Notes: generated by a model from the letters alone, not told the origin. 64,000 nucleotides of DNA from an uncultured Gammaproteobacteria bacterium (GCA_964558005.1 CAZLCO010000001.1:62362-126361); one strand, 5' to 3'. Shown: positions 3,845-52,195, counted from the first letter of the stretch. Translations and numbers: made by a program.

Positions 3845-4645
3845 ATGAAAACCCTGGGAATACTATATATTTGTCCGACCCCAATAGGGAACATGGAAGA
3901 CATTACCCTCAGAGTGTTAAAAACCTTAAGGGAAGTTGACCTGATTGCCTGTGAAGACACGAGGGTGACCCAAAAACTGCTTAACCGGTATGAAATAAGT
4001 ACAAAATTAACCAGCTACCATAAATTCAGCGAAAAAGAAAAAAGTGAGTATCTTGTTAAGCTTTTGCGGGAAGGCAAAAATATTGCGCTTGTGTCTGATG
4101 CGGGCACACCTTTAATAAGTGACCCGGGCGCTGAGCTGCTCAAACATGAGATTAATGTAGCACCCCTGCCCGGGGCTAATTCAATTACTACAGCACTCTG
4201 CGCTGCGCCGACAGAAAAAAACGAGTTTGTTTTTGTGGGGTTTTTGCCTAAAACCAAAAAGGACTTCTTGCTTAAATACTCAGCCGTAAACATTGTGGCT
4301 TTTGAGTCGCCTAACAGGCTGGTTAAAACCCTTAAAGAGCTGTTTGATATTTTTGGCGAAACTAAAATCACTGTAGCAAGGGAGCTGACCAAAATTTATG
4401 AGGAAATAAAAACCGGTTCAATTGATACTTTAATAAGCTATTACACCCAAAGCCCTCCAAAGGGCGAAATAGTACTGGTTATTCATGGCATAGAAGAAAA
4501 AAAGCCCAAAGAGCAGGACATAATCAATAAAATTAATTTGCTTAAAAAAGAAGGGTATTCTGTTAAGGACATAAGCAAAATTATTTCTGTTTTATATAAA
4601 TATCCAAAAAATGAAGTGTATGAACTTGCGATGAATTTAAATTAA
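3845..4645 (+). CDS. rsmI: 16S rRNA (cytidine1402-2'-O)-methyltransferase
   Basis: The N-terminus GILYICPTPIGNMEDITLRVLKTLREVDLIACEDTRVTQKLL is typical of RsmI tetrapyrrole-methylase-fold proteins. The start was moved to ATG 3845 (MKTLGILY). Confidence 0.88.
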   Translation: MKTLGILYICPTPIGNMEDITLRVLKTLREVDLIACEDTRVTQKLLNRYEISTKLTSYHKFSEKEKSEYLVKLLREGKNIALVSDAGTPLISDPGAELLKHEINVAPLPGANSITTALCAAPTEKNEFVFVGFLPKTKKDFLLKYSAVNIVAFESPNRLVKTLKELFDIFGETKITVARELTKIYEEIKTGSIDTLISYYTQSPPKGEIVLVIHGIEEKKPKEQDIINKINLLKKEGYSVKDISKIISVLYKYPKNEVYELAMNLN

Positions 4646-26649: not shown

Positions 26650-28032
26650 ATGGGGAATAATTTAAAACAACGCCAAAAACCAAAAGAACTCTCGCCTGAC
26701 TACAGGAACACAAATTTTGAGCCCGTAGAAGCTAACCTGAGCGACGAACAGGCACTTCTAGAAGCAGGCAGGTGCCTGCAGTGCAAAAAACCAAAATGCG
26801 TCGAGGGATGTCCGGTAAACGTCCAGATACCGCAGTTTATCCGGGCTGTAAAAGACGGTAAAATAGAGGAAGCCGGACGCTTAATCCGTGAAACTAACTA
26901 CCTGCCTTCTGTTTGCGGCAGGGTATGCCCGCAGGAAAAACAATGCGAAGGCAACTGCATACTCGGCATTAAGGGAGAACCGGTTAATATAGGAGCTCTG
27001 GAAAGATACATAGGCGACTTAACAGCGCCGATAGCAGAAAAAGCCTCGCCCACAGGAAAAAAGATTGCAATAATAGGCTCGGGCTGCGCAGGAATGAGCG
27101 CAGCGGCCGACCTCGCCAAAGAAGGGCATAAAGTAACTGTTTTTGAAGCCCTACATGCACTTGGCGGAGTATTAAGATACGGAATCCCTTCTTTCAGACT
27201 GCCCAGAGAAGTGCTTGACCGGGAAATTGAATTCCTCAAAAAACTCGGCGTGGAATTCGTGACCAACGTCGTTATAGGCAAATCACTTACTATTAATGAC
27301 CTTTTTGAAGACGGGTACAGCGCGGTATTTATCAGCAGCGGGGCGGGCCTGCCAAAATTACTGAATATCGAAGGCGAAAACCTGAACAACGTTTATTCCG
27401 CCAATGAATTCCTCACCCGTGTAAACCTGATGAATGCAGGCAGGGGCAATTCTTCTACCCCTATATACACAGGCAAAAAAGCAGTAGTAATAGGCGGCGG
27501 CAACGTTGCCATGGACGCTGCCAGAGTAGCTAAAAGAATAGGTTTTAATGAAGTAGTCATAGCCTACCGCCGTTCAGAAGCAGAACTTCCCGCCAGAAAA
27601 GCCGAAATAGAACACGCAAAGGAAGAAGGCATAGAGTTTTTAATGCTGCATTCCCCGCTTGAGATACTCGGCGAAGACGGAAAAGTAAGCGGGCTAAAGC
27701 TTCAGGTCATGGAACTTGGCGAGCCTGACGCTACCGGCAGGAGAAGGCCTGTCGCTATAGAAGGCAGGCAAGTTGATATTCCAGCTGATACTGTTATAGT
27801 AGCGCTCGGCACCAACGTAAACCCGATAATCCCCCGCTCTGCGAAAAATTTAAAACTTGACCAAAAAGGTTATATTGAAATTAACCCGGAAACTGGCAAA
27901 ACTTCTATCCCCGGAGTATGGGCGGGAGGAGACATTGCGCCGACCGGCGATTCCACCGCAATTAATGCGATGGGTGCGGGTAAGCGGGCAGCCGCGGCGA
28001 TTAGCGAGTGGTTAGGGAGAAAAGATGGCTAA
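26650..28032 (+). CDS. NADPH-dependent glutamate synthase small-subunit-like oxidoreductase (GltD/NfnB/PreT-like)
   Basis: N-terminal Fe-S Cys motifs are CLQCKKPKCVEGCP and CGRVCP...C. Two dinucleotide folds are present: IAIIGSGCAG and VVIGGGNVAMD. Confidence 0.85.
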   Translation: MGNNLKQRQKPKELSPDYRNTNFEPVEANLSDEQALLEAGRCLQCKKPKCVEGCPVNVQIPQFIRAVKDGKIEEAGRLIRETNYLPSVCGRVCPQEKQCEGNCILGIKGEPVNIGALERYIGDLTAPIAEKASPTGKKIAIIGSGCAGMSAAADLAKEGHKVTVFEALHALGGVLRYGIPSFRLPREVLDREIEFLKKLGVEFVTNVVIGKSLTINDLFEDGYSAVFISSGAGLPKLLNIEGENLNNVYSANEFLTRVNLMNAGRGNSSTPIYTGKKAVVIGGGNVAMDAARVAKRIGFNEVVIAYRRSEAELPARKAEIEHAKEEGIEFLMLHSPLEILGEDGKVSGLKLQVMELGEPDATGRRRPVAIEGRQVDIPADTVIVALGTNVNPIIPRSAKNLKLDQKGYIEINPETGKTSIPGVWAGGDIAPTGDSTAINAMGAGKRAAAAISEWLGRKDG

Positions 28033-28831
28033 ATATGTATTAATCACCGGCGCATCATCCGGCATAGGAAAAACAACCGCTGAAATGCTCAAAGAAAAAG
28101 GCTTTACAGTGTTTGGCGGGGGCAGGGACTTTATGGACGTTAATGACGACAATGCCGTCAAAAAAGTGTGCGCCCAAATATCTGAAGAAACAGGAGAAAA
28201 CGGCCTGTACGGGCTGGTAAATAATTCCGGCATAGCCGTAGCAGGGCCTATGGAATTTTTGCCCATAGAAAAACTAAGGCACCAGCTGGAAACCAACGTC
28301 ATCGGCCAGGTGCGCGTCACCCAGGCATTCCTGCCGCTAATAAGAAAAGGCAGGGGTAGGATAGTAAATATAAGTTCTATTGCGGGATTTACGGCATTTC
28401 CATTTAAAGGGGCGTATGCCGCGTCAAAATTTGCGCTGGAAGCTATTTCTGACAGCCTGAGAAGGGAACTAATGCCCTGGAATATCCCGGTGAGCGTTAT
28501 AGAACCGGGCATAATAAAAACGCCCATATGGGACAGGTCACTGGAGCTATTTAACCAGACTATATGCGAAATGATTGACGATGCCGGTAAATATTACGGT
28601 GATTACTGCGACCCGCTTATTGAACGGACAAGGAAAAAAGTGGAAAAAATGGCAGCCCCGCCTGAAGAAGTAACAGAAGCAATATATAAGGCATTAAGTT
28701 CTAAAAACCCTAAAACACGCTACCTTGTGGGCAAAGATGCTCAAATGTTAAACTTATTAAGAGTTTTACCCGATAAAATACTTGATAAGATTATTTGTTC
28801 ACATTTAAAATTAAAAAATGACCAATCCTGA
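28025..28831 (+). CDS. short-chain dehydrogenase/reductase (SDR)
   Basis: Motifs TGASSGIG, NNSG and YAASK are present. Confidence 0.85.
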   Translation: MAKYVLITGASSGIGKTTAEMLKEKGFTVFGGGRDFMDVNDDNAVKKVCAQISEETGENGLYGLVNNSGIAVAGPMEFLPIEKLRHQLETNVIGQVRVTQAFLPLIRKGRGRIVNISSIAGFTAFPFKGAYAASKFALEAISDSLRRELMPWNIPVSVIEPGIIKTPIWDRSLELFNQTICEMIDDAGKYYGDYCDPLIERTRKKVEKMAAPPEEVTEAIYKALSSKNPKTRYLVGKDAQMLNLLRVLPDKILDKIICSHLKLKNDQS

Positions 28832-29621
28832 ATACATTTCATATCTTGGCTCCTGTTTCAGAAAAGGCAGGCTTATCCGCTGGCCCGACCACACAATGCC
28901 TTTAACGGTATTTGTAGCGCCTTTCCGCTGGTACAGGGCGCAGGATGAAGACTACACATATTATGGAATGGTACAGGAAGCGATAAATATATGGGAAAGA
29001 GCTTCTCAGGGCAAGGTTAAGTTTGAGTTCGTAGATAAGTTGTACGATTCGCAAATTAATATTGAATGGAAAAGAGTTGAAAGAAAATCACTGGGACACT
29101 GTAATTTTAATTTTGATAATGAAAGCAGGCTTTTCTCTGCTGAAGTGAGTATCGGCCTTTCTGACGGGATAATACACCAGCAGTACCAGGACAAAAACGA
29201 GGTTTTCCATACCATTATTCACGAACTGGGCCATGCACTGGGACTTGGACACAGCCCTTACCCTAATGACATAATGTACGTGCCGCACCAGTACGGCGTA
29301 ACCAAAGTGTCGAAAAGGGATATAACCACTTTAAAGTGGCTTTATCAAATGCCCTACGGCATAACAAAAGAAGAAATAATGACGCATTATAAGGCACCTG
29401 GTAGCCAGGACCTTGATAAATTAATTTATCAACTGGAAACCGGCGACAATCCCGAATCGGCAAGCCCAACTGCCCCGGCGAATGACGAACAGCTTAATAA
29501 TGAACAAAATACACTCGCAAAACTTAATAAGTTCAACATTTCAATACAAAACGTCAGCGTGTCCCGCGATGCAGAGGAATATTTCAGAAAATTAAGAATT
29601 AAAAAAGAACTGGGGGAGTAA
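28818..29621 (+). CDS. matrixin-like zinc metalloprotease (M10 family)
   Basis: The HExxHxxGxxH motif is HELGHALGLGHS, with a Met-turn candidate DIMY. The gene overlaps the SDR stop by 14 nt. Confidence 0.75.
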   Translation: MTNPEYISYLGSCFRKGRLIRWPDHTMPLTVFVAPFRWYRAQDEDYTYYGMVQEAINIWERASQGKVKFEFVDKLYDSQINIEWKRVERKSLGHCNFNFDNESRLFSAEVSIGLSDGIIHQQYQDKNEVFHTIIHELGHALGLGHSPYPNDIMYVPHQYGVTKVSKRDITTLKWLYQMPYGITKEEIMTHYKAPGSQDLDKLIYQLETGDNPESASPTAPANDEQLNNEQNTLAKLNKFNISIQNVSVSRDAEEYFRKLRIKKELGE

Positions 29622-29685
29622 ACGACCTTCTATACCCGACTGGATAATATTTTTTGGTTTTAATTTCAAATAAAATCAAAAAATT

Positions 29686-30780
29686 ATGAAAGTTTCCTTT
29701 CCTCATATGGGATATACTTATATAGCGTTTGCCGGGGCATTCAAAGTCCTGGGCGCTGATTTTATAATCCCGCCCTATACAACAAAAAGAACACTTAACC
29801 TCGGCGGCAAACACAGCCCGGAAGTCGTATGCCTTCCTTATAAACTTGTTATCGGCAACTATTTGGAAGCCATAGAAACAGGTGCGGAAGCTGTTTTGAT
29901 GATTGACAGCCCGGGCACGTGCAGACTTGGACAATACAGCGACATAGCAAAAACTGCCATACGAGATATAGGACATGATATCAAATTTATTAACCTGGAC
30001 CTTTATAAAGGCCGGGTTTTTGAGCTGTATCAGGGGTTCAGCGAAGCCACCGGCAACAAAAACCCTGTTGATTTAATAAGGGCGGTACAAATAGCCCTTA
30101 TTAAAGTTAATATGCTTGATGAAATCAACAATATATACAGTTATTACAGAGCCCGGGAAGTAAAAAAAGGAAGCGCAAAAAAAATATTCAAAAAATCCTT
30201 AAAACTGCTTGACGATGCGATGACTCCAAAGGAATGCCGGGAAGCCAGGCAAAAAAGTGTCGAATTGTTTTCCGCGCTGAACATAAATGAAAATAAACCT
30301 GTTTTAAACGTTGATATAACAGGTGAAATTTATGTTGTTATTGACCATTTTTCCAATATGGATATTGAAAACGAACTCGGCGGCATGGGTGTACATGTCC
30401 GCAGGAGAATAAATTTAAGCGATTGGACAAATAATTTTATAAAATTATCATTACTTAAACTAAATGAAAGCCATGGCGATAAAGTAAAAAAACTCGCCAA
30501 AGACTTTATAAAAAGAGATGTCGGAGGCGATGCCCTGGAAGCAATAGGCGATGCTGTTTATGCGGGCAATGCCAGAAACGACGGCGTTATTCACCTTCTG
30601 CCGTTTACCTGTATGCCGGAGATAATTTCGCAAAACATACTCCATAACGTATCAAGAGAAAGGGACATTCCTGTATTATCGCTTGTTTTGGATGAATTTA
30701 CGGGGAAGGCGGGTTTTGTTACAAGGCTGGAAGCTTTTGTGGATTTAATTGCGAAAAGGCGTGAACTTAAAGCGGGATGA
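29686..30780 (+). CDS. acyl-CoA dehydratase activase-related protein (DUF2229-like)
   Basis: The N-terminus FPHMGYTYIAFAGAFKVLGADFIIPP...CLPYKL, and later GEIYVV, resemble the uncharacterised domain found with BadF/BcrA-type activases. This is from memory only. Confidence 0.45.
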   Translation: MKVSFPHMGYTYIAFAGAFKVLGADFIIPPYTTKRTLNLGGKHSPEVVCLPYKLVIGNYLEAIETGAEAVLMIDSPGTCRLGQYSDIAKTAIRDIGHDIKFINLDLYKGRVFELYQGFSEATGNKNPVDLIRAVQIALIKVNMLDEINNIYSYYRAREVKKGSAKKIFKKSLKLLDDAMTPKECREARQKSVELFSALNINENKPVLNVDITGEIYVVIDHFSNMDIENELGGMGVHVRRRINLSDWTNNFIKLSLLKLNESHGDKVKKLAKDFIKRDVGGDALEAIGDAVYAGNARNDGVIHLLPFTCMPEIISQNILHNVSRERDIPVLSLVLDEFTGKAGFVTRLEAFVDLIAKRRELKAG

Positions 30781-44561: not shown

Positions 44562-44873
44562 TTAGCCGCCTATCACAGCGTGTTTTAACTTATATTTGCG
44601 CTGTTTTTTCAGGCTTTCCAGCATAGCATCACGAATCAGCATACCAAGTTCATTCATGATCATTGCACAACTTAAATCCTTATCTTTTTCATTTAATGCG
44701 GCAAGAGCCTCCTGATATTGCTCATCAGTGCACCCGCCGCCGGAGTAAATACTTGCCAGCTGACTTGCTGCATTAATTAAAGCAAGTTTATTCATCGAAT
44801 TTCTTTGCCAGCTGTATTCATTTGTACTTAAAGCACGACTTGAAGCTATTATTCCAGCTTGATTTGTTATCAT
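44562..44873 (-). CDS. small helical hypothetical protein, paralog A
   Basis: 103 aa. It aligns by eye with paralog B: NSMNKLALINAASQLA / NAMKKISLLNNSEQLA and LNEKDKDLSCAMIMNELGMLIRDAMLESLKK / LNEADKDLNAGLIMGDLMRNIMNSIEESSKK. Confidence 0.6.
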   Translation of the reverse strand: MITNQAGIIASSRALSTNEYSWQRNSMNKLALINAASQLASIYSGGGCTDEQYQEALAALNEKDKDLSCAMIMNELGMLIRDAMLESLKKQRKYKLKHAVIGG

Positions 44874-44959
44874 ATAAAATTACCTTTTGCTATTACCCTA
44901 TATATATAAAGTATAAAAAAAGGATATTTTTTTAAATTTAAAATTATTTTTTACATTTC

Positions 44960-45286
44960 TTAAAACGTAAAACTCTTCCTTATATTCTCCATCGCCATTT
45001 TTTTGGAAGATTCCTCGATGGAATTCATAATATTGCGCATTAAATCTCCCATAATAAGCCCTGCGTTGAGGTCCTTGTCCGCTTCGTTCAACTGTGCAAG
45101 TCCACTGATGAAAGCTTCCGGGTTGTGTCGGTCTTTCTGGAAAATATTGTCAGCGTAATTGGCGGCGAGCTGCTCGGAATTATTAAGCAGGCTGATTTTT
45201 TTCATTGCATTTGACTGAATGCCAAGCTCGGCGTTGCTGCCGATACGACCGGAAGAAAAATATCCGACCATGGATGGGATGCACAT
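44960..45286 (-). CDS. small helical hypothetical protein, paralog B
   Basis: 108 aa and a clear paralog of 44562-44873. It has its own AT-rich upstream spacer. Confidence 0.6.
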   Translation of the reverse strand: MCIPSMVGYFSSGRIGSNAELGIQSNAMKKISLLNNSEQLAANYADNIFQKDRHNPEAFISGLAQLNEADKDLNAGLIMGDLMRNIMNSIEESSKKMAMENIRKSFTF

Positions 45287-45365
45287 GATTTCACCTGTGA
45301 ATAATTGTTGTTATATATCTATAAACAACCACAGGGGACGGGTTTTGTTATTTAAAATATTAAAT

Positions 45366-45635
45366 TTATGCTAAGAATTCCTTTTTGCCTTCCCGCTCTT
45401 TTCTGGCAAGCCGTTCTTCTTCCCTAGCCATAGCTATGTCATACATCAATTCAGCAATATTTTTTTTGGACATTAAATCATTTTCGCTCTGGTGAGCCGT
45501 GGATACCGGAACATCTCCAGAAACCGCCCCGTTCATGTTTGCCATTATTTGGCTTGGAATATTTGATAAAGCATAAGTACTGTCTGAAAACCTCTGTGCA
45601 TTCTCTAATCTGTTGTAAAAATTTATAAAACCCAT
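45366..45635 (-). CDS. small hypothetical protein, possibly distant member of the same family
   Basis: 89 aa with the same orientation and spacing. It shows only weak similarity (SENDLMSKKNIAELMYDIAMA). Confidence 0.45.
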   Translation of the reverse strand: MGFINFYNRLENAQRFSDSTYALSNIPSQIMANMNGAVSGDVPVSTAHQSENDLMSKKNIAELMYDIAMAREEERLARKEREGKKEFLA

Positions 45636-47951: not shown

Positions 47952-47973
47952 GGGCGAAAAAAATAAAAATAAA

Positions 47974-48005
47974 AACCCTATTTCTTAACGGAAATAGGGT
48001 TTTGT
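47974..48005 (+). terminator. rho-independent terminator after hppA
   Basis: aaccctatttc-ttaacg-gaaatagggtt forms a stem-loop followed by tttg. Confidence 0.75.
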
Positions 48006-48123
48006 TATAAGCCAATATCATTTATTTTAATGATAGTACCAATTAAAAAACCTTGTATAATTAAAAAGAGCTATTATTGTCAAATAAAACCCCTTTCTTT
48101 TGCGGGAAAGTTAATACTCGGCT

Positions 48124-50136
48124 ATGTCAAACGAAAAACCAAATTTACCTGATGAAAACTTTGTAAAAAGAACGTTTATCTCAATGTTCTCCGTTGAGGC
48201 TATTTCTGATTACCTGCAAAACAGCGGTATAGAAATATCCCCGGAAACTCCCCTGCACTCTAACCCGCTGATAATTCAAATGTTCGACATAGCGGACATA
48301 AGGCTCAAAAATGGTATAGTCGTTGACGTAAGGGCAATAGTAGGTGAGGAATACCCGCAAATGTGCATCCCGAGGACGCATTTTGAGCGGGGAATAGCCG
48401 CGGATATTTATGTGGGACTGAGAATAGTGCCGGAACGTGAGGAGGCCGAAATTACCGGCTTTATAAAAACCGTCGATATTTCACTGAATAAGGGGAATGA
48501 AAATTATTTTATAATCAGCTCTGAAGAACTAAAACCCATTGATGACATAGCAAAGACAATAAACTCAATCGACAAAAAGGGCAAAACATTCTACGCCCTA
48601 GACCACGACAAGGCATCAAGCCTTTTCATTCCATTTATTGACAATAATATAGCGGAAATTGACCTCAACTACCTGCTCGAGCACATACACAGCTGTACTG
48701 AGTGCCGGGAAAAACTCCATAGGCTAATGCAGCTTGATTCCAGCCTGAAAAAAGAAAAAGAAAATCTTTTGCTGGAAGAAGACTATACACTAAGACTGCT
48801 GGCCAGCGACCCGGTGCTCGCAACGGATGATGAGGTAAGCATACCAATTGAGGAAGAAGCTGACGAGGAAGACGAGGTACTGCCGGAAACCGATATCCAA
48901 AACTTTGAGCTGGAGGAAGCAGAATTAACTGAATTAACCTTTGAGGGCACAGATATTTCTGATGAACCCGAGGTTTTAGCTAAAGAAGAAATAAAACAGG
49001 AAAATTTTGAAGAAGAAGATATCCTGGAAACCCTGGAAGATCTTGAAACTCTTGAGGGAGAAGATATTGAATCGCTGCTTTCCATGTTTAAGTCAGGGGA
49101 GGAGAAGCAGGAAGAGGATATTGAAGCATTACTTGTGCCTGAACCCGGGCCTGAACCCGAAATACAGGAAGAGACCGTAATACCTGAACCTGAGGAAGAA
49201 AAAGAACAAATTACAGAAGAAGTCCCGATATTAGAGGACAAAAAAGATGATGATATAGCTCAAACAATACAGGAAGTAACTGAAAAAGAAGAAACCAACG
49301 ACATTTTCCCTGAAGAGGAAATCCCCGCCGCAGAAGAAATAGAGCAGGAAGACCTGTTGGATCTTTTCGAGGAAACCCCGCCTTCTGAAGGGGTGCCGCC
49401 GGATAGTAGTTACTATGAGCCGCTTACAGATGAAGAGCGTATGCAAAAAGCAGCTCACGAAAGGGTAATGAAAATTTCCACTTTTGTAATGAAAAACAAA
49501 AAAATGGTGGCCGGAAGCCTCGGCATTGCAGTATGCCTCGTAATGCTTTTAAACTCCATAGGTAAATTAGGCGAAGATTTAAAACTTAAAAAAGCCGCCC
49601 GGGAAAACAACCAGGTTGTAAACCAATCAAATAATAACAAAACTGCCTCAATAAAAAGAGAAAGAACTCCGATAAAATCATATACAAGAGAAATAGTTAA
49701 AATTGTAAAACCGGAAAAAAATACCGAAATTCCTGAAGAAATCCTCCCGAAAGAAACTAAAATTGTTCAAAAAAAAGCTGTTCAAAAACCGCGGGAACTA
49801 AAAATAAAGCACATATCCTGGGAACTGCCTGCTAATATTGCCCGGGACCAAAAAATAAAAGAATATTTCCTTGATATAGGACAAAACCTTAAAACTACCC
49901 TTTCAAAAGAGCTCTATACTGCTGAAGTTAATGCTGAAAACTCCAGAATAAACATATATATAGAACTAAACAGAAATGGCAGTATTATAACCAGCAAAAT
50001 AACAGAGGAAAGCGGTATTGAAAAAATGGATAATATCTGCCTCAGTACAATTAATAACCTTATTAATAAATACAAATTTCCTGATTCAGAAATAAAACAG
50101 GATAAAATAAAATTTCTACTCTTAATAAGGACTTAG
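48124..50136 (+). CDS. large anti-sigma-like membrane protein (zf-HC2 motif, acidic repeats, single TM, TonB_C-like end)
   Basis: HIHSCTECREKLHRL fits the H-x3-C-x2-C zinc-finger of anti-sigma factors. There is about 200 aa of E-rich low complexity, a TM helix (MVAGSLGIAVCLVMLLNSI) and a C-terminal ~90-aa domain of TonB-C-like size. The N-terminal domain was not recognised with certainty (DUF1822-like?). Confidence 0.5.
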   Translation: MSNEKPNLPDENFVKRTFISMFSVEAISDYLQNSGIEISPETPLHSNPLIIQMFDIADIRLKNGIVVDVRAIVGEEYPQMCIPRTHFERGIAADIYVGLRIVPEREEAEITGFIKTVDISLNKGNENYFIISSEELKPIDDIAKTINSIDKKGKTFYALDHDKASSLFIPFIDNNIAEIDLNYLLEHIHSCTECREKLHRLMQLDSSLKKEKENLLLEEDYTLRLLASDPVLATDDEVSIPIEEEADEEDEVLPETDIQNFELEEAELTELTFEGTDISDEPEVLAKEEIKQENFEEEDILETLEDLETLEGEDIESLLSMFKSGEEKQEEDIEALLVPEPGPEPEIQEETVIPEPEEEKEQITEEVPILEDKKDDDIAQTIQEVTEKEETNDIFPEEEIPAAEEIEQEDLLDLFEETPPSEGVPPDSSYYEPLTDEERMQKAAHERVMKISTFVMKNKKMVAGSLGIAVCLVMLLNSIGKLGEDLKLKKAARENNQVVNQSNNNKTASIKRERTPIKSYTREIVKIVKPEKNTEIPEEILPKETKIVQKKAVQKPRELKIKHISWELPANIARDQKIKEYFLDIGQNLKTTLSKELYTAEVNAENSRINIYIELNRNGSIITSKITEESGIEKMDNICLSTINNLINKYKFPDSEIKQDKIKFLLLIRT

Positions 50137-50140
50137 GAAA

Positions 50141-50695
50141 ATGGAATACAAAGAAGAACATATAGAACTTATCAAAAATATAATTCAAAAAAGCCCCGGG
50201 TTTTCAGGTAATGAAGACTTATTTGAAATAATGGTCAGCGAAACCCTCAAAAAATCACGCAGTTTTCTGGAAAGTTCAATAGAATTAAACAGCCTTGAAA
50301 TTTACCTGAAAAAAATAGCTGGTAATGTGGTTGTTGAAGTATTAAAAAATGCGCCTGTATTGAGGGCTGAGCTGGAAAAACAAAAAACCGTAGATTTTAT
50401 AAAAACGCCGGTATTATACGATACCGACCCCAAAGGCTTAATAGTCCACAAAATTAACCTGCCCGCAATGCATGAAGTCGAAAGCAGGGGGCTAAGCAAG
50501 GAAAAAGTAGAACTTATAAAACAAAAAGTAATGGAACTCGATAAAAACAGCTCAACAAAAAAATATAAACAAATTTTTGAATTACGTTTTGTTCGGGAGA
50601 TGACCCATAATGAAATAGCCAAAAAACTTGATATGGAAGAAGTTGAAGTTGCAAAGGCTTTACTTGAATTATTAACAGAAATTGACTCAGCGTAA
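50141..50695 (+). CDS. sigma-70 family (ECF-like) RNA polymerase sigma factor
   Basis: A region-4 HTH is present: IFELRFVREMTHNEIAKKLDMEEVEVAKAL. The length is 184 aa. It starts 4 nt after the preceding stop. Confidence 0.55.
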   Translation: MEYKEEHIELIKNIIQKSPGFSGNEDLFEIMVSETLKKSRSFLESSIELNSLEIYLKKIAGNVVVEVLKNAPVLRAELEKQKTVDFIKTPVLYDTDPKGLIVHKINLPAMHEVESRGLSKEKVELIKQKVMELDKNSSTKKYKQIFELRFVREMTHNEIAKKLDMEEVEVAKALLELLTEIDSA

Positions 50696-50743
50696 ATTGT
50701 TATTATTTTAATGTATATGGAAACTGAATTATTAACTAAAATT

Positions 50744-51274
50744 ATGAAAAAATTACTTATCACCTTAAACTTAATAATGTTTTTAGCCGCCTGTCAGGCG
50801 ACTTTAGCTGATGATGACTGGGTAAGCGTTTACGAAGGCTTTGACAACGCTGAATACGGAAAAATGGTTTCTGAAAAAGAATACCTCGATGCTGTAAAAA
50901 CCATGGAAAAATACAGCAAAAAAAATAAAAAAGATAAAAAAAAAGAAGACCTGTCAGAAGAAAAAAAACCTGAAATCAAGTTTGACCGTCCGGCAAAAAC
51001 AGAACCTCTTTTAGCTCTGGTTACTGACGTAGATTATAAAGGCAAACCGATTGAGCGGGGTTTTTACCTCGCCAACGCAATAAATAAGGACAACAGGCAT
51101 TTTATAAGGCTCTCTCTGGGGGAAGGCAAAATAATAGCCGACATAGAAGCAAATGTACTGAATAATAAAAACGAGGAAAAGAAAATTTTTTCTGAAATCA
51201 TGGATAATGGTATATTAAAACTAACTTATACTGACTATGACATTATTTTAGAAGCATATTTATGGATACAATAG
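50744..51274 (+). CDS. hypothetical lipoprotein
   Basis: Signal/lipobox MKKLLITLNLIMFLAAC, followed by a K-rich linker. Start chosen at ATG 50744. Confidence 0.55.
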   Translation: MKKLLITLNLIMFLAACQATLADDDWVSVYEGFDNAEYGKMVSEKEYLDAVKTMEKYSKKNKKDKKKEDLSEEKKPEIKFDRPAKTEPLLALVTDVDYKGKPIERGFYLANAINKDNRHFIRLSLGEGKIIADIEANVLNNKNEEKKIFSEIMDNGILKLTYTDYDIILEAYLWIQ

Positions 51275-52041
51275 ACCACCCCTGTTTTAATTACTCAGCC
51301 TGTAAAACTTCGGCCAGGATACATTTACCGGTAGCGCCTGATTGCAACATACAGTGCTGTTATTGTAACAGGGATTATGACTGCGCAAATGAAATCCGTC
51401 CGGGTGTAACCAGCAAAATTTTAACACCAGAGCAGGCTTTTGAAAAATTCACCGAAGCCTCAAAAAAATTGGGCAACATAACTACTGTAGGTTTTGCCGG
51501 ACCCGGCGACCCGCTGGCTAACTGGAAAGAAGTAAAACAGACCGCTGAGCTGGTAAGGTCTGTCAATAAAACCGTCAACCTGTGCATTTCAACCAATGGA
51601 CTGAACCTCCCTAAATACTCCGACGAACTTGTTGAAGCCGGGTTTGCATTTTTAACCATAACAATTAATGCTGTTAAACCAACAACAGCAGCAAAAATAT
51701 ATCAATGCCCGGATATTGAGGAATTGCTTAAAAACCAGCTTAAAGGTTTAAAATACCTTTCCGGCAGGGGAATAAAAACCAAGATAAACACAATATACCT
51801 GCCGGGCATAAACGATGGGGAGATAGAAGACATTGCCCGCACAGTCAGCGAGAATGGCGCTTTTATAATGAACATAAAAAATGTAATTCCGAGTCCTTCC
51901 CCGCCTGAACTTAACGAAATCCGGCGCAGATGTTCTAAATACATAAAACAAATGGATTATTGCAAGCAGTGCAGGGCAGATTCTGTTGGCTTACTTGGCG
52001 AGGACAGATTTTCGGAATTTTACCAGGTGCCATTCTCCTAA
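51262..52041 (+). CDS. NifB-like radical SAM protein (shortened)
   Basis: HPCF...HLPVAPDCNIQCCYCNRDYDCANEIRPGVTSKILTPEQA, GFAGPGDPLAN, CISTNGL, TITINAV and CKQCRADSVGLLGEDR closely follow the NifB radical-SAM core as I remember it. Confidence 0.75.
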   Translation: MDTIDHPCFNYSACKTSARIHLPVAPDCNIQCCYCNRDYDCANEIRPGVTSKILTPEQAFEKFTEASKKLGNITTVGFAGPGDPLANWKEVKQTAELVRSVNKTVNLCISTNGLNLPKYSDELVEAGFAFLTITINAVKPTTAAKIYQCPDIEELLKNQLKGLKYLSGRGIKTKINTIYLPGINDGEIEDIARTVSENGAFIMNIKNVIPSPSPPELNEIRRRCSKYIKQMDYCKQCRADSVGLLGEDRFSEFYQVPFS

Positions 52042-52166
52042 AATACCCCCCACAACCCCTCGAAAACAAAAGAAAATTCACCCCAAAAACCCAAAAAACC
52101 CCCAAAACCACCCATCCGCACCAATCCCCAAAACCCGCCCCACGCAAACATTTTCCGCCCCGCCAC
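52042..52166. other. C/A-rich, G- and T-poor tract (rut-like on + strand, G-quadruplex-capable on - strand)
   Basis: My hand count gives about 7 G and 10 T in ~125 nt. The minus strand of 52081-52113 reads GGG-N7-GGGGG-T6-GGG-T5-GGGG. Confidence 0.8.
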
Positions 52167-52195
52167 TTGAAAAACCTGCCCATATATGGTACAAT
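52167..52195 (+). promoter_or_regulatory. near-consensus sigma-70 promoter with extended -10, no ORF downstream
   Basis: TTGAAA (52167-52172), a 17-nt spacer ending in TGg, then TACAAT (52190-52195). TGnTAnAAT-type -10 boxes recur upstream of other genes here, for example at 53195-53203 and around 43520. Confidence 0.45.

Follow-up and report, generated by a model that had tools for sequence, protein, structure and literature searches.

The closest described systems to the one analysed here are RsiW-SigW of Bacillus subtilis (5WUQ) and RslA-SigL of Mycobacterium tuberculosis (3HUG), in which a single-pass anti-sigma factor with cytoplasmic HxxxCxxC zf-HC2 helices is paired with an adjacent two-domain sigma factor of the extracytoplasmic function (ECF) type. 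FecA-FecR-FecI embodies the concept of a periplasm-spanning anti-sigma factor that relays an outer-membrane event to an ECF sigma factor, and the rpoE-rseA-rseB and algU-mucA-mucB operons encode a sigma factor, a membrane anti-sigma factor and a secreted periplasmic protein together. A pairing of ECF sigma and DUF1822 genes has been noted computationally in cyanobacteria (Kaur et al. 2021, PMC8195603). Stand-alone NifB enzymes, which consist of the radical S-adenosylmethionine (SAM) domain only, are known and functional in methanogens and Firmicutes (6Y1X, 7JMA; PMC5715403). Here we describe a four-gene operon, A to D, that has points in common with each of these systems. It lies in a stretch of 64,000 nucleotides (nt) recorded under an uncultured Gammaproteobacteria bacterium (GCA_964558005.1 CAZLCO010000001.1:62362-126361), which we refer to as the window.

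The four open reading frames (ORFs) are all on the + strand at 48124-52041, exactly where a preliminary description of this DNA had placed them, and the junctions that it gave also hold: B begins 4 nt after A, C begins 15 nt after B (48 nt if its start is M12, the one favoured by homologues), and the first 13 nt of D lie within the end of C. The upstream gene, a Na+/H+-pyrophosphatase according to Pfam and NCBIfam, ends in a strong hairpin, so that the A-D block forms a separate transcription unit. Relatives of the operon occur in a Candidatus Gastranaerophilales metagenome-assembled genome (MAG) and in Candidatus Melainabacteria GWF2_37_15, and its host belongs to the Melainabacteria/Vampirovibrionia, the non-photosynthetic relatives of cyanobacteria. 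With moderate confidence, we read the operon as a trans-envelope signalling module in which A restrains B, the operon is autoregulated and the synthesis of a NifB-type enzyme is placed under the same signal.

A profile of the first ~250 residues of A matches two PDB sequences and no others, the anti-sigma factors RsiW (5WUQ chain C; E = 0.0019 over 63 columns) and RslA (3HUG chain B; E = 0.11). In the AlphaFold2 (AF2) model of amino acids (aa) 1-240, which is confident (pLDDT 81.5, pTM 0.77), a long helix precedes a beta-rich domain spanning aa 58-132, and aa 139-226 form a helical bundle, for which Foldseek finds RsiW and RslA with TM-scores, normalised to the target, of 0.62-0.64. H187-x3-C191-x2-C194 (nt 48682-48705) lies within FIDNNIAEIDLNYLLEHIHSCTECREKL, a typical zf-HC2 context. 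The HxxxCxxC motif is retained in six of eight close homologues and in 75 of 151 family members, and 15 of 50 sampled members match Pfam zf-HC2 (PF13490), the best with E = 1.7e-7. The anti-sigma zinc finger of the preliminary description is supported by these family data and by the RsiW and RslA matches. The anti-sigma helices of A would bind and inhibit B, and the motif is a candidate zinc-binding site.

Ahead of these helices, Pfam DUF1822 (PF08852) matches aa 15-142 with 30.1 bits against a gathering threshold of 25, as the preliminary description had guessed; the match spans just profile positions 25-156 of 370. The similarity to Nostoc DUF1822 proteins found by hhalign (probability 97%, E = 5.8e-11) is likewise confined to the N-domain, and 14 of 50 sampled members of the A family match DUF1822 in Pfam. 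By these sequence criteria A is a partial, domain-level member of DUF1822. Given that the similarity is limited to the N-domain, A appears to be a DUF1822-type N-domain fused to a class I anti-sigma module. The idea that DUF1822 is a TPR protein was rejected, for the N-domain of A at least, by the AF2 model. Among 50 diverse family members R16, D58, D68, R70, P83, H86, D94 and Y96 are invariant or nearly so, and the near-invariance of D58, D68, R70, H86, D94 and Y96 suggests a binding or active site. The D...DxR pattern sits on neighbouring beta strands.

Foldseek returns weak matches (E 0.025-0.5) of the N-domain to PD-(D/E)XK nucleases, namely the SPARDA nuclease domain, DpnI, EcoRV, Eco15I and PvuII. 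They raise the alternative, which we consider very unlikely, that the locus is a conflict or defence sensor, its N-domain being a nuclease-derived sensor or effector and its sigma factor turning on an anti-invader response. Such a role would fit the combination of these best folds with the near-invariant D58, D68-x-R70, H86 and D94, the giant DZR/AAA_16/TPR (STAND-like) proteins that follow distant A-B loci, one A-B-C-D locus beside terminase genes, and the report that conflict neighbourhoods with EACC2-caspases contain ECF sigma and DUF1822 genes (Kaur et al. 2021, PMC8195603); a response to invaders has been proposed for such neighbourhoods in cyanobacteria. Against it stand the weakness of the fold matches (E at least 0.025), the housekeeping character of the surrounding window genes (Lpt, Der, DXR, FtsH, PheS, ScpAB/SMC, FliD), and the TonB-like periplasmic domain and secreted partner described below, which suggest that the input comes from the envelope. 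The searches, in which the PADLOC library was not included, gave no match to a known defence family. We return to the signalling module, to which the remainder of A contributes.

The segment between the anti-sigma helices and the membrane is 29% Glu with a net charge of -72 (aa 231-450). It had been described as ~200 aa of Glu-rich repeats; it is low-complexity sequence instead, and Tandem Repeats Finder detects no tandem array in it. The single transmembrane (TM) helix that had been claimed could be located (Table 1). The ~190 residues after it comprise a basic spacer and a TonB/TolA-type domain. In the window copy, Pfam TonB_2 (PF13103) matches aa 600-655 with E = 0.011 and 16.3 bits, below the cutoff of 22. 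The family sample is clearer, with TonB_2 matched in 42 of 50 members and TonB_C (PF03544) in 21 of 50 at E 0.01 or better, which at the family level supports the C-terminal domain of TonB-C-like size in the preliminary description. Searched against the PDB, a C-terminal domain profile finds marginal matches, four out of five of which are TonB or TolA (E 0.07-0.37). The TM segment, MVAGSLGIAVCLVMLLNSIG, contains no His, so that A lacks the SxxxH motif of TonB. In the TM helix of E. coli TonB this motif serves ExbB/ExbD coupling.

The extent of the A family was determined by an exhaustive hidden Markov model (HMM) search of sequences clustered at 50% identity. It yielded 887 cluster representatives at E 1e-3 or better, 525 of them at 1e-30 or better, and corrected the impression of a rare family given by word-indexed searches, which had returned eight relatives of A and six of B. 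We sampled 151 members, consisting of the best exhaustive-HMM matches and six close homologues found earlier. Of these, 144 have a length of 600 aa or more, and 140 of the 144 contain a TM helix. Full-length members have an acidic linker before the helix, differing in length across the family (median Asp+Glu, 31%), and a tail after it with a median of 216 aa. A has no match in NCBIfam. One member of 1086 aa (P0138) carries the DUF1822-N/zf-HC2 module at residues 329-580 and is thus N-terminally extended. Our literature searches turned up no account of a protein that joins DUF1822-N, zf-HC2, TM and TonB-like parts, or of its sigma partner.

The AF2 model of B (pLDDT 73.8) contains two helical domains with a disordered linker between them, in the order sigma-2 (aa ~5-82), linker, sigma-4 (aa ~110-183), without sigma-3. 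Its top Foldseek matches are almost all ECF sigma factors (SigH, sigmaE, SigL, AlgU, BldN, SigW, SigK), aligned over ~180 columns with probabilities of 0.97-1.0 and E-values of just 2e-3 or weaker. The AlgU-MucA and sigmaE-RseA structures are among these matches, as are the partner sigma factors of RsiW and RslA. In sequence searches B aligns with TIGR02937 over its full length (E = 1e-8). Region 4 is matched in all B orthologues, and the distant copy in L008 exceeds the Sigma70_r4_2 cutoff with 29.4 bits. By eye, 'NEDLFE..ETLKK' and 'YLKKIAGNVVVEVLKN' can be picked out in the alignment as sigma-2 signatures by comparison with the ECF consensus. The most fitting description of B is that of a highly divergent ECF-type sigma factor, in keeping with the ECF-like sigma factor first proposed.

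A B-type gene is found directly 3' of A, at a distance of 4-150 nt, in every lineage examined, and A-B-C is present in all close lineages. The complete A-B-C-D block occurs in five lineages, four of which keep the 13-nt C/D overlap. Among the MAGs with A-B-C-D are GCA_001784565.1 and GCA_028278605.1, while GCA_028277195.1 has A-B-C only. The invariant core is A-B, which C joins in the close group and D in one subclade. Hence the four-gene synteny anticipated in the preliminary description does occur in other genomes and its A-B(-C) core holds, but D is not a constant member, being absent from two close lineages. Scanning genome contigs with an alignment of five sequences gave a Gastranaerophilales MAG as the sole match; a metagenome scan with A added one informative locus, L025, while a metagenome scan with D and a scan of viral contigs returned nothing.

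Upstream of A is a conserved promoter-like motif, AATGATA-N20/21-TATAAT. It occurs once in the window, against 0.04 expected by chance, and in nine of ten close lineages it is present exactly once per locus, always just upstream of A. Given this motif and the recurrence of the block in other genomes, the A-D arrangement is not due to chance. Three distant lineages carry TGGAATATTTT upstream of A instead, with a GGAAT core like that of ECF -35 elements. The motif thus changes together with the sigma subfamily, as autoregulation would predict. A further element, CGG-N-TTAAAATG, surrounds the A start codon (window 48114-48126) and has been conserved across six lineages; the A start has no evident Shine-Dalgarno sequence.

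Table 1. Features of the operon and gene order at related loci (L numbers). Locations are window nucleotides unless residues or loci are given.
Feature	Location	Strand	Description or basis
Gene A	48124-50136	+	670 aa, single-pass membrane anti-sigma-like protein
A aa 1-146, DUF1822-type N-domain (long helix and beta-rich domain)	48124-48561	+	Pfam, hhalign, AF2
A aa ~158-226, class I anti-sigma helices with zf-HC2 motif	48595-48801	+	Profile and fold matches
A aa 231-450, acidic low-complexity linker, predicted cytoplasmic	48814-49473	+	Composition
A aa ~461-481, single TM helix	49504-49566	+	Kyte-Doolittle 19-residue maximum 2.15 at aa 461
A aa ~560-670, putative periplasmic TonB/TolA-type C-terminal domain	49801-50133	+	Pfam and PDB profile
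Gene B	50141-50695	+	184 aa, divergent ECF-type sigma factor
Gene C	50711-51274	+	187 aa, secreted protein of unknown family; probable start 50744
Gene D	51262-52041	+	259 aa, stand-alone NifB-type radical SAM enzyme
Promoter-like motif AATGATA-N20-TATAAT, candidate (autoregulated) operon promoter or operator	48029-48061	+	Conservation
Hairpin terminator of upstream Na+/H+-pyrophosphatase gene	47972-48003	+	13-bp stem, A and T runs either side
Radical SAM cluster ligands of D	C28, C32, C35		MaNifB C50, C54, C57
K1 cluster ligands of D	C8, C41, C108		MaNifB C30, C63, C129
K1 nitrogen ligand of D	H21		MaNifB H43
K2 cluster ligands of D	C224, C234, C237		MaNifB C264, C274, C277
A-B-C-D, unrelated flanks	window; L001; L002-4; L014/15; L018/19		
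A-B-C then other gene	L005; L025		tRNA synthetase (L005); convergent gene (L025)
A-B-C then contig end	L027; L029		
A-B then giant DZR/AAA_16/TPR protein	L007; L008		
A-B then contig end	L011; L012		Third ORF cut off (L011); B itself cut off (L012)

C has no relative in Pfam, NCBIfam or the PDB. Common to six C homologues are a signal peptide, an AxA site for signal peptidase I (after A33 in the window copy) and, following it, a conserved DDW motif; C is therefore secreted and probably periplasmic. The preliminary description had called C a lipoprotein. The Cys of the lipobox L25-A26-A27-C28 is unique to the window copy, being missing in five orthologues, which rules out a conserved lipoprotein. 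A role of C as the peptide substrate of D was also rejected, as D is NifB-like and not a SPASM enzyme or a maturase of ribosomally synthesised and post-translationally modified peptides.

D aligns from end to end with NifB proteins of solved structure (6Y1X, E = 1e-63; 7BI7 and 7JMA, ~3e-49) and is 45-53% identical to annotated NifB proteins. All cluster ligands are present, with spacing identical to that in MaNifB (Table 1), which together with the structure matches supports the NifB-like identity assigned at first sight. With the NifB model TIGR01290, D scores 275.1 bits against an equivalog cutoff of 343.65 and matches model positions 10-285 of 441; the lack of the NifX-like domain that the model includes explains the sub-threshold score. 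Six motifs are reported to be strictly conserved in NifB: HPC, Cx3Cx2C, ExRP, AGPG, TxTxN and Cx2CRxDAxG (Arragain et al. 2017, PMC5715403). D retains the first five. Its sixth motif is CKQCRADSVG, with an Ala to Ser substitution that characterises the operon-linked clade. When 120 D homologues were placed in a neighbour-joining tree, the 16 short proteins closest to D grouped in a single clade, 14 of them with the Ser variant; a sister NifB clade includes P0047, P0049 and P0115. The five clade members of known context in the clade of D are all encoded in A-B-C-D operons and lie on both of its branches. The operon-linked NifBs are, by this sequence tree, monophyletic. D belongs to the same length class as the stand-alone NifBs of methanogens and Firmicutes but differs from them in that its gene lies in a sigma/anti-sigma operon and not in a nif cluster, in having CxxCRxDSxG in place of CxxCRxDAxG and in falling into a separate clade.

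The link between the sigma/anti-sigma module and this NifB paralogue is real but unexplained, and we found no published link of such a module to NifB. A more mundane account, which we consider possible but unlikely, accepts the sigma/anti-sigma module and treats NifB as a passenger: an ordinary NifB, whose client nitrogenase or nitrogenase-like enzyme has its genes elsewhere, lodged after A-B-C in an ancestor and was inherited without being coupled to it. The absence of D after C in L005 and L025, the origin of every A-B-C-D locus from a single bacterial class, and the retention of all NifB ligands by D agree with this account. So does the finding that at least one melainabacterium, ACD20 from an aquifer, has nifHDK together with both 'nifB' and 'nifB/X', while gut lineages lack nifHDK (Di Rienzi et al. 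2013, PMC3787301). What a passenger does not readily explain is that the 13-nt C/D overlap has been kept in four of five lineages despite wholly different flanks, that the C-D boundary has no conspicuous promoter or terminator of its own, and that the proteins form a clade of their own with an Ala-to-Ser change in a motif reported to be strictly conserved in the NifBs of diazotrophs. The opposite extreme seems to us quite unlikely, namely that the D clade is not a nitrogenase maturase at all and makes a carbide-containing or fused Fe-S cluster for a non-nitrogenase client, under a new class of anti-sigma factor with a nuclease-derived sensor and a TonB-like arm that reads an outer-membrane receptor directly.

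In the signalling module that we favour, the binding of A to B, the interaction of C with A, the autoregulation, the nature of the signal and the enzyme receiving the NifB product are all things that we infer. A would be an inner-membrane anti-sigma factor whose zf-HC2 helices, packed on the DUF1822-type N-domain, keep B inactive. The long acidic linker, presumably disordered, would lead to the TM helix, and the protein from this helix onward resembles a whole TonB/TolA-type protein that may reach into the periplasm. Secreted C is a likely periplasmic partner or modulator of the TonB-like domain, by analogy with RseB and MucB. B could be released by a periplasmic or outer-membrane signal acting on the arm of A together with C, or by a cytoplasmic signal acting through the zinc-thiol site or the DUF1822-type N-domain. 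Freed B would transcribe from the conserved upstream motif, and hence the operon itself. In one subclade D appears to be translationally coupled to C, and this coupling would tie the synthesis of an oxygen-sensitive enzyme that fuses Fe-S clusters to the activity of sigma factor B. Such a system would amount to a surface-signal-controlled regulon with a metallocluster step, as had been suggested from the gene arrangement.

Several findings weigh against this reading. B scores 34.9 bits with TIGR02937, below the cutoff of 42.9, and 22.7 bits with Sigma70_r4_2, below the cutoff of 25.7; sigma region 2 is barely detectable by sequence and gives no Sigma70_r2 match. The fold searches gave weak E-values throughout (2e-3 or higher). 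Pfam zf-HC2 does not match the copy of A in the window, whose zf-HC2 assignment derives from the family profile and the motif. The -10-like element TATAAT of the upstream motif looks like a housekeeping rather than an ECF element, and a spacing of 20-21 nt fits neither promoter type cleanly. There is no outer-membrane receptor gene next to the operon and no nitrogenase-like client (nifHDKEN) in the 64-kb window, and two A-B-C lineages (L005 and L025) lack D after C.

The scores of B bear in particular on the view that A is no anti-sigma factor and B no true sigma factor: A would be a TonB/TolA-like protein that spans the envelope and has a cytoplasmic extension with a regulatory role, and B would be a helix-turn-helix regulator. 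We consider this view very unlikely, on a par with the defence sensor. It would account for the failure of B to reach any curated sigma cutoff, with just its C-terminal helix-turn-helix being detected by sequence, and for the layout of A, which from the TM helix to the C-terminus (~216 aa) is that of a complete TonB. Yet the predicted fold of B aligns over ~180 columns with ECF sigma factors, the sigma-2 domain included, the sole PDB profile matches of A are anti-sigma factors, and the TM helix of A, having no His, lacks SxxxH.

The signalling module also differs from each of its described counterparts. Unlike RsiW and RslA, A has a DUF1822-type domain of ~150 aa before the anti-sigma helices and an acidic linker of ~220 aa after them, and it resembles TonB/TolA in its extracytoplasmic part; the anti-sigma gene precedes the sigma gene, and B fails the curated models. 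Unlike FecR, A has no FecR or DUF4880 domain, no gene for a TonB-dependent transducer is nearby, and the anti-sigma factor itself bears the TonB-type domain, an arrangement of which we found no published example. The genes of the rpoE and algU operons are ordered differently, no similarity of C to RseB or MucB is detectable, and RseA and MucA are not zf-HC2 proteins.

In cyanobacterial DUF1822 (PF08852) systems, a domain homologous to the N-domain of A is likewise encoded beside a small sigma-like gene (L021, L022). These DUF1822 proteins are soluble, are ~320 aa long, have a C-terminal half unrelated to A and lack the zf-HC2, TM and TonB-like parts. In both Nostoc loci the sigma-like gene is directly upstream of DUF1822, and there is no NifB; L021 has CHASE2 and DUF928 genes 3' of DUF1822. 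The small gene of L022 gives a very weak Sigma70_r2 match (E = 0.086), and that of L021 no sigma match.

If the reading of A as an anti-sigma factor is correct, its family is a large one (at least 887 clusters at 50% identity), with an architecture that we found described nowhere, and the A-B pairing gives the DUF1822 domain a concrete, testable role. The locus suggests a design of cell-surface signalling in which the anti-sigma factor itself bears the TonB-type domain. A monophyletic NifB paralogue wired to a sigma/anti-sigma module, in the non-photosynthetic sister lineage of cyanobacteria, bears on whether NifB-type cluster fusion is employed outside nitrogenase.

The genes around the operon gave some further observations. 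No intrinsic terminator was found 3' of D. Directly after the D stop is a C-rich, G-poor tract of ~130 nt (window 52040-52170, +), which could be a Rho-utilisation-like site; a convergent prephenate dehydratase gene lies beyond it. After the tract, within 52040-52195, TTGAAA-17-TACAAT with an upstream TG is the best sigma-70-like promoter match of the region and points into the 3' end of the prephenate dehydratase gene. This tract and promoter-like region are not kept in L001 or L014. The idea of nif genes at 39.7-43.4 kb was dismissed, as the products encoded there are an IF-2B-family protein, the GTPase Der and a protein with an HD domain. Scanning the window for Rfam families and tRNAs gave no matches and so no taxonomic marker.

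At the distant loci L007 (4599-7577) and L008 (10571-14077), A-B is followed by a protein of 992-1168 aa with DZR zinc-ribbon, AAA_16 and TPR_MalT matches, which is STAND-like; this setting resembles the conflict neighbourhoods in which ECF sigma and DUF1822 genes were reported. The A-B-C-D locus of L003 (7996-11005) is a few kb from the genes for the large and small subunits of a phage terminase, suggesting an adjacent prophage. A trio of short-chain dehydrogenase, Peptidase_M10 and DUF2229 genes is found both in the window (28025-30780) and in L001 (8176-10274), 17 kb and 4 kb from the operon, respectively, which indicates local rearrangement between the relatives. L001 also has a microsatellite-like (GGTAAG)n array 3' of the NifB-like gene (4240-4305). 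Finally, three small ORFs in tandem on the - strand of the window (44562-45635; 103, 108 and 89 aa), without a Pfam match, appear as weak paralogues, with identities of 34% and 23% among them.

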